Below, one piece after another: positions 52,252 through 52,315 of a stretch of DNA of 63,706 nt. How positions within the stretch are numbered: the first letter of the stretch is position 1; every line of letters starts with the position of its first letter. The position numbers and the translations under genes are program-made. Source of the stretch: Girardia tigrina (Eukaryota); NCBI GenBank assembly GCA_001938485.1, contig MQRK01233049.1, positions 6,200-69,905 on the forward strand, written 5' to 3'. A model generated the notes under the pieces. The model saw only the letters and a program-made list of their open reading frames with translations. It was not told the DNA's origin and did not search any database.

Positions 52252-52315
52252 AGTTTTTTCGCTACACGAGCCATGGCTCGTCTTCAGGGCGCCATGGCGC
52301 CCAGGCGAAAAAACT
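52252..52315. other. GC-rich Y/T-shaped hairpin, candidate telomere or origin
   Basis: Stem AGTTTTTTCGC/GCGAAAAAACT encloses two perfect 16-nt palindromes, ACGAGCCATGGCTCGT and GGGCGCCATGGCGCCC. Confidence 0.75.

Follow-up and report, generated by a model that had tools for sequence, protein, structure and literature searches.

A Y-shaped hairpin among Rep and helicase fragments of Girardia tigrina as the probable end of an endogenous PEVE/PIVE-like element

The question raised by this locus is whether a small, GC-rich, branched hairpin lying among fragments of Rep and helicase genes is the end of a linear single-stranded DNA element, and if so, of what kind. A preliminary description had likened the hairpin to a parvovirus telomere (an 11-bp stem carrying two 16-nt palindromic arms in AT-rich DNA, present twice and each time at a breakpoint), even though the neighboring Rep appeared CRESS-like, and had suggested folding it as single-stranded DNA and searching for flip/flop isomers and for co-occurrence with Rep loci. 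These points were examined in the window, i.e., the whole stretch of 63,706 nucleotides that was analyzed, which is AT-rich animal DNA (31% GC) containing MULE and mariner pieces.

The Y-shaped hairpin is real. In the complete copy (copy 1, 52250..52315; 5' stem strand 52250-52263, a spacer between the arms, 3' stem strand 52305-52315), positions 52252-52262 pair with 52305-52315 through 11 Watson-Crick pairs, with a wobble pair as the twelfth in the minimum-energy fold, while arm B (52266-52281) and arm C (52287-52302) are each a perfect 16-nt palindrome. Overall, the stem measures 11-16 bp and the hairpin 64-68 nt. The arms have a GC content of 0.70, compared with 0.22 and 0.25 for the flanks and 0.31 for the window, and the described stem and arms in AT-rich DNA were thus borne out by both the positions and the GC values. 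Folded as single-stranded DNA, copy 1 is stable on both strands (plus strand: -22.0 kcal/mol, z -5.9; minus strand: -23.2 kcal/mol, z -7.8), 0 of 200 shuffles folded equally well, and it ranked second in stability among the sites scanned with 7594 windows of 64 nt. Allowing for up to three mismatches, each arm occurs exactly twice in the 63,706 bases (chance expectation 0.00-0.01), in line with the two occurrences reported. The 29 bases common to both copies had no exact match in prokaryotic genome contigs, 52228-52320 had no match among plasmids and phages, and a Rfam search of 45000-63706 returned 0 matches. Elsewhere in the window, two overlapping GC-rich palindromes are found at 25854-25879, and their sequence is unrelated to the hairpin.

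The second copy (copy 2, 61616..61669) consists of arms B and C (61616-61652), the 3' stem strand, and a CCCC tail; it is without the 5' stem strand and, judging from the 52-kb and 56-kb units described below, appears to have lost about 70 subterminal bases that preceded it. The copies are identical at 47 of 50 bases (52266-52315 vs. 61616-61665), and the differences noted earlier in the arm center and the inter-arm spacer were confirmed as one change in the loop of arm B and two in the spacer, with all three falling in the 14 unpaired positions (P 0.019). The complementarity between the tail of copy 2 and the start of copy 1 proved even longer than first described, as the tail extends as CCCC to 61669 and its first two bases pair with the GG preceding the copy 1 stem. 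The presence of a Y hairpin in two places holds only in part: the arms are there in both copies, but copy 2 lacks the entire 5' stem strand and therefore makes two separate small hairpins on its own, with no Y (z -1.9 on the plus strand, where 10 of 200 shuffles were as good, and z -3.0 on the minus strand). Because arm B precedes arm C in 2/2 copies, no flip/flop pair is present in the window, two copies being too few to exclude a mixture. The location at breakpoints was confirmed, since copy 1 runs into the interior of a helicase gene and copy 2 into the interior of Rep exon 1, with short microhomologies at the hairpin exits (5 and 2 bases, judged against other genotypes). We can only infer separate genotypes of origin for the two hairpins, because their own flanks are not comparable.

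Both copies lie inside a cluster of Rep and helicase pieces (45721-63146, about 17 kb), and none was found in the remaining 45 kb, so that within the window the hairpin does co-occur with Rep loci. All 12 Rep pieces are on the plus strand and all five helicase pieces on the minus strand. The cluster opens with a near-complete Rep of lineage B (45721..47125, with a 53-nt intron), the 3' part of a helicase with one internal stop (47240..47540), and three truncated Rep pieces in tandem (47540..49655, comprising 47540-48222, 48274-49110, and 49156-49655). The 3' half of a lineage B Rep (51599..52186) precedes the subterminal stretch of copy 1, and a helicase 5' piece (52316..52390) is joined to the end of this hairpin. 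These are followed by two short Rep pieces flanking an intron (53755..54430; 53755-54037 and 54215-54430), a near-complete but frameshifted Rep of lineage A (54485..55850, intron of about 52 nt), a helicase-only gene of 220 aa in an open frame (55973..56635; NS1/Rep40-like superfamily 3 domain, no HUH domain), a Rep piece of a third, more distant lineage (57800..58150), two broken Rep pieces, namely a 5' piece and then a near-complete lineage B gene (59158..60612), and a frameshifted helicase-only gene (60729..61387). A lineage A Rep without start and motif I is joined to the tail of copy 2 (61668..62992), and its 3' end faces the last 21 bases of a helicase gene (63126..63146, matching 55973-55993 at 20 of 21 positions). 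Four of five Rep 3' ends, from both Rep lineages, meet a convergent helicase 3' end, and the Rep 3' end at 52 kb is without the 3' motif present after three other Reps. Many copies carry stops, frameshifts or truncations, and the element copies in the window are fossils.

Several other features surround or interrupt the cluster. It is located upstream of the BTB exon of a voltage-gated potassium channel gene (minus strand, exons 33433-34422 and 41099-41671; Ion_trans, BTB), and a MULE transposase remnant with a sequence gap is inserted within it (50070-51350). Divergent from the first Rep, a degraded frame (43900-45560, minus strand) contains a mariner piece (44228-44490) and had no match in Pfam, PHROGs or PDB; by eye, its start at 45.2-45.5 kb is reminiscent of a viral phospholipase A2 motif, and the frame could be the missing structural gene of the element, or unrelated. 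A 55-codon acidic open frame without PHROGs match follows just past the last helicase remnant (63151-63318). No capsid gene was identified in the window.

The Rep is CRESS-type, not parvoviral. Six copies have an identically placed GT-AG intron (46-54 nt); in the third-lineage piece, an apparent intron is found elsewhere, at about 58028-58078. In an alignment with 34 database relatives, the intron appears as an insertion, and the three rolling-circle motifs (HUH motifs I-III) line up, as do the helicase motifs (Walker A and B, motif C, and an arginine finger). A profile search against PDB gave the circovirus Rep 7lar as the best match (E 2e-9, over its length), followed by 6h8o and 2hwt, presumably nanovirus Reps, and no parvoviral protein was among the 33 matches. 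For the Rep model (pLDDT 88.5), the fold search likewise put a circovirus Rep first in PDB, while in BFVD the PEVE type 2 Rep (Q910M2) ranked 4 of the 50 matches listed (E 6.6e-20, 27% identity), with the two named Reps above it coming from records labelled CRESS or circular. Both the profile and the fold search hence support the CRESS-like Rep of the preliminary description. The individual window Reps had no useful score against Pfam, and 13 of 30 relatives matched Viral_Rep or Gemini_AL1_M (E < 0.01). The Rep tree, a quick version in which seven rows were short, served solely to tell lineages A and B apart (support 84 and 87). Pattern searches for Rep loci in prokaryotic contigs gave 192 matches, 0 of them confirmed, and none were found in phages. 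Strong stem-loops were also seen in the Rep coding sequence of four divergent copies, at or just before Walker A (62137-62179, 55153-55216, 48089-48152, and 57865-57913; a 17-bp stem has z -5.7 and a 16-bp stem z -9.6).

The second gene encodes a 220-aa NS1-like protein that is a helicase only, with the HUH domain absent. It matched Parvo_NS1 (E 2e-5) and PPV_E1_C (E 7e-4) in Pfam and AAV2 Rep40 as its best PDB hit (E 0.007). No relatives were found among 133 near-length and 779 longer database candidates, the model built from three rows was useless (pLDDT 28.9), and the comparison of the helicase with the Rep alignment gave a probability of 9.5%.

How many elements contributed to the cluster was estimated from the divergence of the gene copies. 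Among the 66 pairs formed by 12 in-frame Rep segments, 34 aligned over at least 55 codons, and 33 of these had synonymous differences of 0.64-1.04 and non-synonymous differences of 0.04-0.32; the remaining pair, at 0.57, is a spurious alignment of non-overlapping parts. Three helicase pairs showed the same contrast (synonymous 0.44-0.62 vs. non-synonymous 0.05-0.09). Because each of six Rep copies is close to saturation relative to the others across a shared region, at least six genotypes had diverged as working elements before capture, and the cluster likely holds nine or more. All end regions in the cluster point one way despite the at least six genotypes, an arrangement that resembles the capture of such elements time and again at a single locus. 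In three cases, a Rep start is preceded by no more than about 55-60 bases of its native upstream sequence, beyond which lies a junction (48220-48273, 54430-54484, and 59095-59157), perhaps a preferred breakpoint; the similarity among the three short upstream regions is borderline (p 0.05 at best).

The units follow a common order, in which the Rep (plus strand) and the convergent helicase (minus strand) are succeeded by a GGGGAG-lined inverted repeat, some 100 bases of AT-rich sequence, a stem entry rich in G, and the hairpin. An internal inverted repeat lies upstream of each of three helicase 5' ends, in genotype 1 at 52407..52515 (with GGGGAG repeats, z -6.9), in genotype 2 at 56685..56798 (24-bp perfect arms, z -9.3), and in genotype 3 at 61441..61565 (z -5.6). 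Its arms match over 16, 24, and 17 bases within a genotype but over only 9-11 bases across genotypes, so pairing has been maintained while the sequence changed; with its TATA-like loop, the repeat is a candidate helicase promoter or second Rep-binding site/origin. Beyond it, a subterminal stretch whose last part is the G-rich stem entry was found at 52516..52639, where a host repeat begins at 52640 (78% like 18020-18231), and at 56799..56890, followed by unrelated DNA; in both units, the hairpin stem has just begun where the G-rich part ends. The corresponding stretch before copy 1 (52186..52249, plus strand) is composed of AT-rich repeats and then a G-rich stem entry with GGGGAG, and, when compared with the distal ends of the three units, matches the one at 52 kb (p 0.001) and, weakly, the one at 56 kb (p 0.048), but not the one at 61 kb (p 0.95). 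In the 61-kb unit, copy 2 sits 50 bases distal to the inverted repeat, whereas the stem entry of the other two units is about 80-115 bases distal. Out of the 17 GGGGAG/CTCCCC sites of the window, 13 fall within 992 bases of end regions, and among these are one site preceding copy 1 and another in the tail of copy 2; as the motif was chosen after being seen, the printed P of 1e-20 overstates this enrichment. The repeats are candidates for a Rep-binding element.

The shared flanks of the end regions and the GGGGAG sites indicate that the hairpin belongs to the element and is located at its helicase-side edge, which supports the proposed link between hairpin and Rep element. In all four ends, the element sequence stops at the hairpin, twice at the stem entry (52639 and about 56890) and twice immediately past the 3' stem strand (at 52315 and 61669, which differ by four bases in hairpin terms), and the DNA beyond is different each time (helicase-gene interior, Rep exon 1 interior, host repeat, and unrelated DNA). 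With each of the four ends breaking off at the hairpin or immediately past it, this structure is probably where a linear PEVE/PIVE-like element terminates, and the near-identity of the two hairpins, set against synonymous divergences of 0.44-1.04 in Rep and helicase, was counted for this reading. On balance, we regard a linear, PEVE/PIVE-like single-stranded DNA element with the hairpin at its helicase-side end as reasonably probable. An inverted copy of the end region before Rep was sought in 20 comparisons of Rep-upstream with helicase-end DNA, none of which was significant, and none of 10 comparisons of Rep upstream regions among themselves fell below p 0.05; the scope of this search for a second end is set by the short upstream DNA of the three Rep starts mentioned above. 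Other points that weigh against a linear end are the missing capsid gene, the single arm order, a hairpin only about half as long as the AAV palindrome, the CRESS or circular labels of the two named Reps ranked above PEVE, and the shortness of the junction microhomologies.

The same hairpin could instead lie inside a circular or dumbbell genome as its branched origin, nicked by Rep for rolling circle replication, with integrations breaking at the nick or slipping at the structure. This reading is unlikely. In its favor, the Rep is CRESS-type and its named neighbors are labelled circular, no second end emerged from the 20 comparisons, and the observations that weigh against a terminus also fit here, namely the stem of only 11-16 bp, the clustering of breakpoints that a nicked circular origin would likewise cause, and the single arm order, which is what rolling-circle products would show according to the accessible part of PMC11575299. 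Against it, the two copies have no shared sequence after the 3' stem strand, and the breakpoints lie where the structure is entered as well as where it is left, rather than at a single nick. A canonical CRESS nonamer is also missing in and near the hairpin and in the internal inverted repeats, the four pattern matches past 45 kb all lying elsewhere than the hairpin, even if divergent nonamers do exist, as stated in the available portions of the group of sources PMC12451638, PMC13426907 and bioRxiv 10.64898/2026.04.22.720165.

Alternatively, the hairpin could be the terminus of a segmented element in which a Rep segment and a helicase segment share one end, copy 1 being the natural end of the Rep segment. 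The subterminal stretch of copy 1 does come directly after a Rep 3' end, and PEVE type 1 has its Rep on a large and its NS1-like helicase on a small segment, as far as the accessible text of PMC3198968 goes. We nevertheless hold this arrangement to be improbable, given the convergent helicase 3' end met by 4/5 Rep 3' ends in both lineages and the missing 3' motif at the 52-kb Rep end, which suggests a junction. Still less probable is the insertion of a MITE or Helitron end at two places among the Rep fragments. Copy 1 is bounded by an inverted repeat of 11 bp, and the region contains MULE and mariner pieces, yet neither copy has a target-site duplication, within the window both are confined to the cluster, and the flanks and the GGGGAG motif are common to the end regions of the element itself; Helitrons have a short GC hairpin followed by a CTRR end at their 3' terminus, and no CTRR end follows the stem. 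Finally, N gaps are present in the scaffold, including one within the cluster, but a chance structure or assembly artefact is hardly credible in view of the folding scores (z -5.9 and -7.8), the two non-identical copies, and the stops, frameshifts, and host transposon neighbors that the copies carry; moreover, gene copies saturated at synonymous sites are not collapsed or duplicated reads.

If the hairpin is indeed a linear terminus, parvovirus biology suggests how the element might have worked. The folded-back 3' end would prime synthesis by a host polymerase, and the CRESS-type HUH Rep would bind the GGGGAG repeats, nick near the stem, and regenerate the end, while the helicase-only protein may have acted like AAV Rep40. 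Many genotypes would then have been captured successively at the locus by end joining, with the hairpin as the end that gets joined or clipped off in the process. The element thereby suggests parvovirus-like copying with an enzyme of the circular-virus type. Resolution of hairpin ends is otherwise tied to parvoviral proteins, and a conserved hairpin of about 68 nt at the element end offers a concrete substrate for asking whether a CRESS-type Rep can resolve such ends. If so, linear rolling-hairpin replication arose from circular rolling-circle replication on more than one occasion. In addition, the locus documents repeated capture, with at least six genotypes in one orientation, for which one-stranded piRNA clusters provide a comparison as sites of one-directional capture at a single locus. 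Considerably more tentative, and on the whole doubtful, is the wider picture of an animal lineage of linear single-stranded DNA elements whose rolling-hairpin replication with a CRESS-type Rep evolved apart from parvoviruses and Oomyviridae, with a miniature AAV-like end of about 68 nt, a captured parvoviral helicase as second motor, and a one-directional, single-locus genotype archive as in piRNA clusters.

Among known systems, circular CRESS viruses (circoviruses, nanoviruses, and unclassified ones) are alike in having a Rep with HUH and superfamily 3 domains, but the window shows no nonamer stem-loop and has an extra helicase gene and an intron inside the HUH domain. The ends of AAV and densoviruses resemble the hairpin in being GC-rich three-way structures with short repeats at the stem entry, and AAV2 Rep40 is the protein closest to the helicase in PDB. 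In the available text of PMC11575299, the AAV terminal repeat has the order A, B, B', C, C', A', the same as copy 1, in keeping with the AAV-like end proposed initially, and it serves as a primer; its palindrome of 125 nt plus a D sequence is about twice as long as the hairpin of 64-68 nt. The window further differs by its CRESS-type initiator and by showing no flip/flop. We rejected membership in Parvoviridae on account of the initiator, since the HUH-bearing protein is CRESS-type and the NS1-like protein is helicase only.

A linear genome with a CRESS Rep has a precedent in the Oomyviridae (order Lineavirales, the former parvo-like hybrid virus), presented as linear single-stranded DNA viruses with Cressdnaviricota Reps in the accessible parts of PMC12451638, PMC13426907 and bioRxiv 10.64898/2026.04.22.720165. 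As an ICTV order of such viruses exists, the combination is less unexpected than the preliminary description implied. However, Oomyviridae are credited there with a jelly-roll capsid and predicted oomycete hosts, while the window has an animal genome context, no capsid was found in it, and its element possesses a second helicase and a spliced Rep. No named member of the family was among the fetched Rep relatives or the 50 BFVD matches listed, many of which are without names. Membership in Oomyviridae was rejected on capsid and host context.

The closest comparison is with PEVE and PIVE. PEVE has an extrachromosomal form with mixed single- and double-stranded DNA and is unclassified, and we know of no account of its replication. 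The resemblance consists in a CRESS-like Rep related to the PEVE type 2 Rep (Q910M2), a separate Parvo_NS1/PPV_E1_C helicase, and, for PIVE, integrated copies as reported there and found here too. In the available portion of PMC3198968, PIVE_3p is placed beside the large-segment Reps of PEVE and PIVE_1p beside the small-segment helicase, and Parvo_NS1 and PPV_E1_C are among the three domains that the figure legend comparing PEVE and PIVE names, while the accessible part of bioRxiv 10.1101/551184 notes two G. tigrina elements. A literature search, with the original PEVE papers outside its reach, found no description of the PEVE/PIVE end structure. Differences are that the PEVE type 2 Rep has only 27% identity to the window Rep in the fold alignment, and that Rep and helicase, on separate segments in PEVE type 1 as far as the available text goes, are convergent on one molecule in the window. 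Since the window holds the PEVE/PIVE gene pair, the element would work like PEVE/PIVE and is, judged by this pair, probably related to them. Rather than a new category, the hairpin is likely the linear end of an endogenous PEVE/PIVE-like element.
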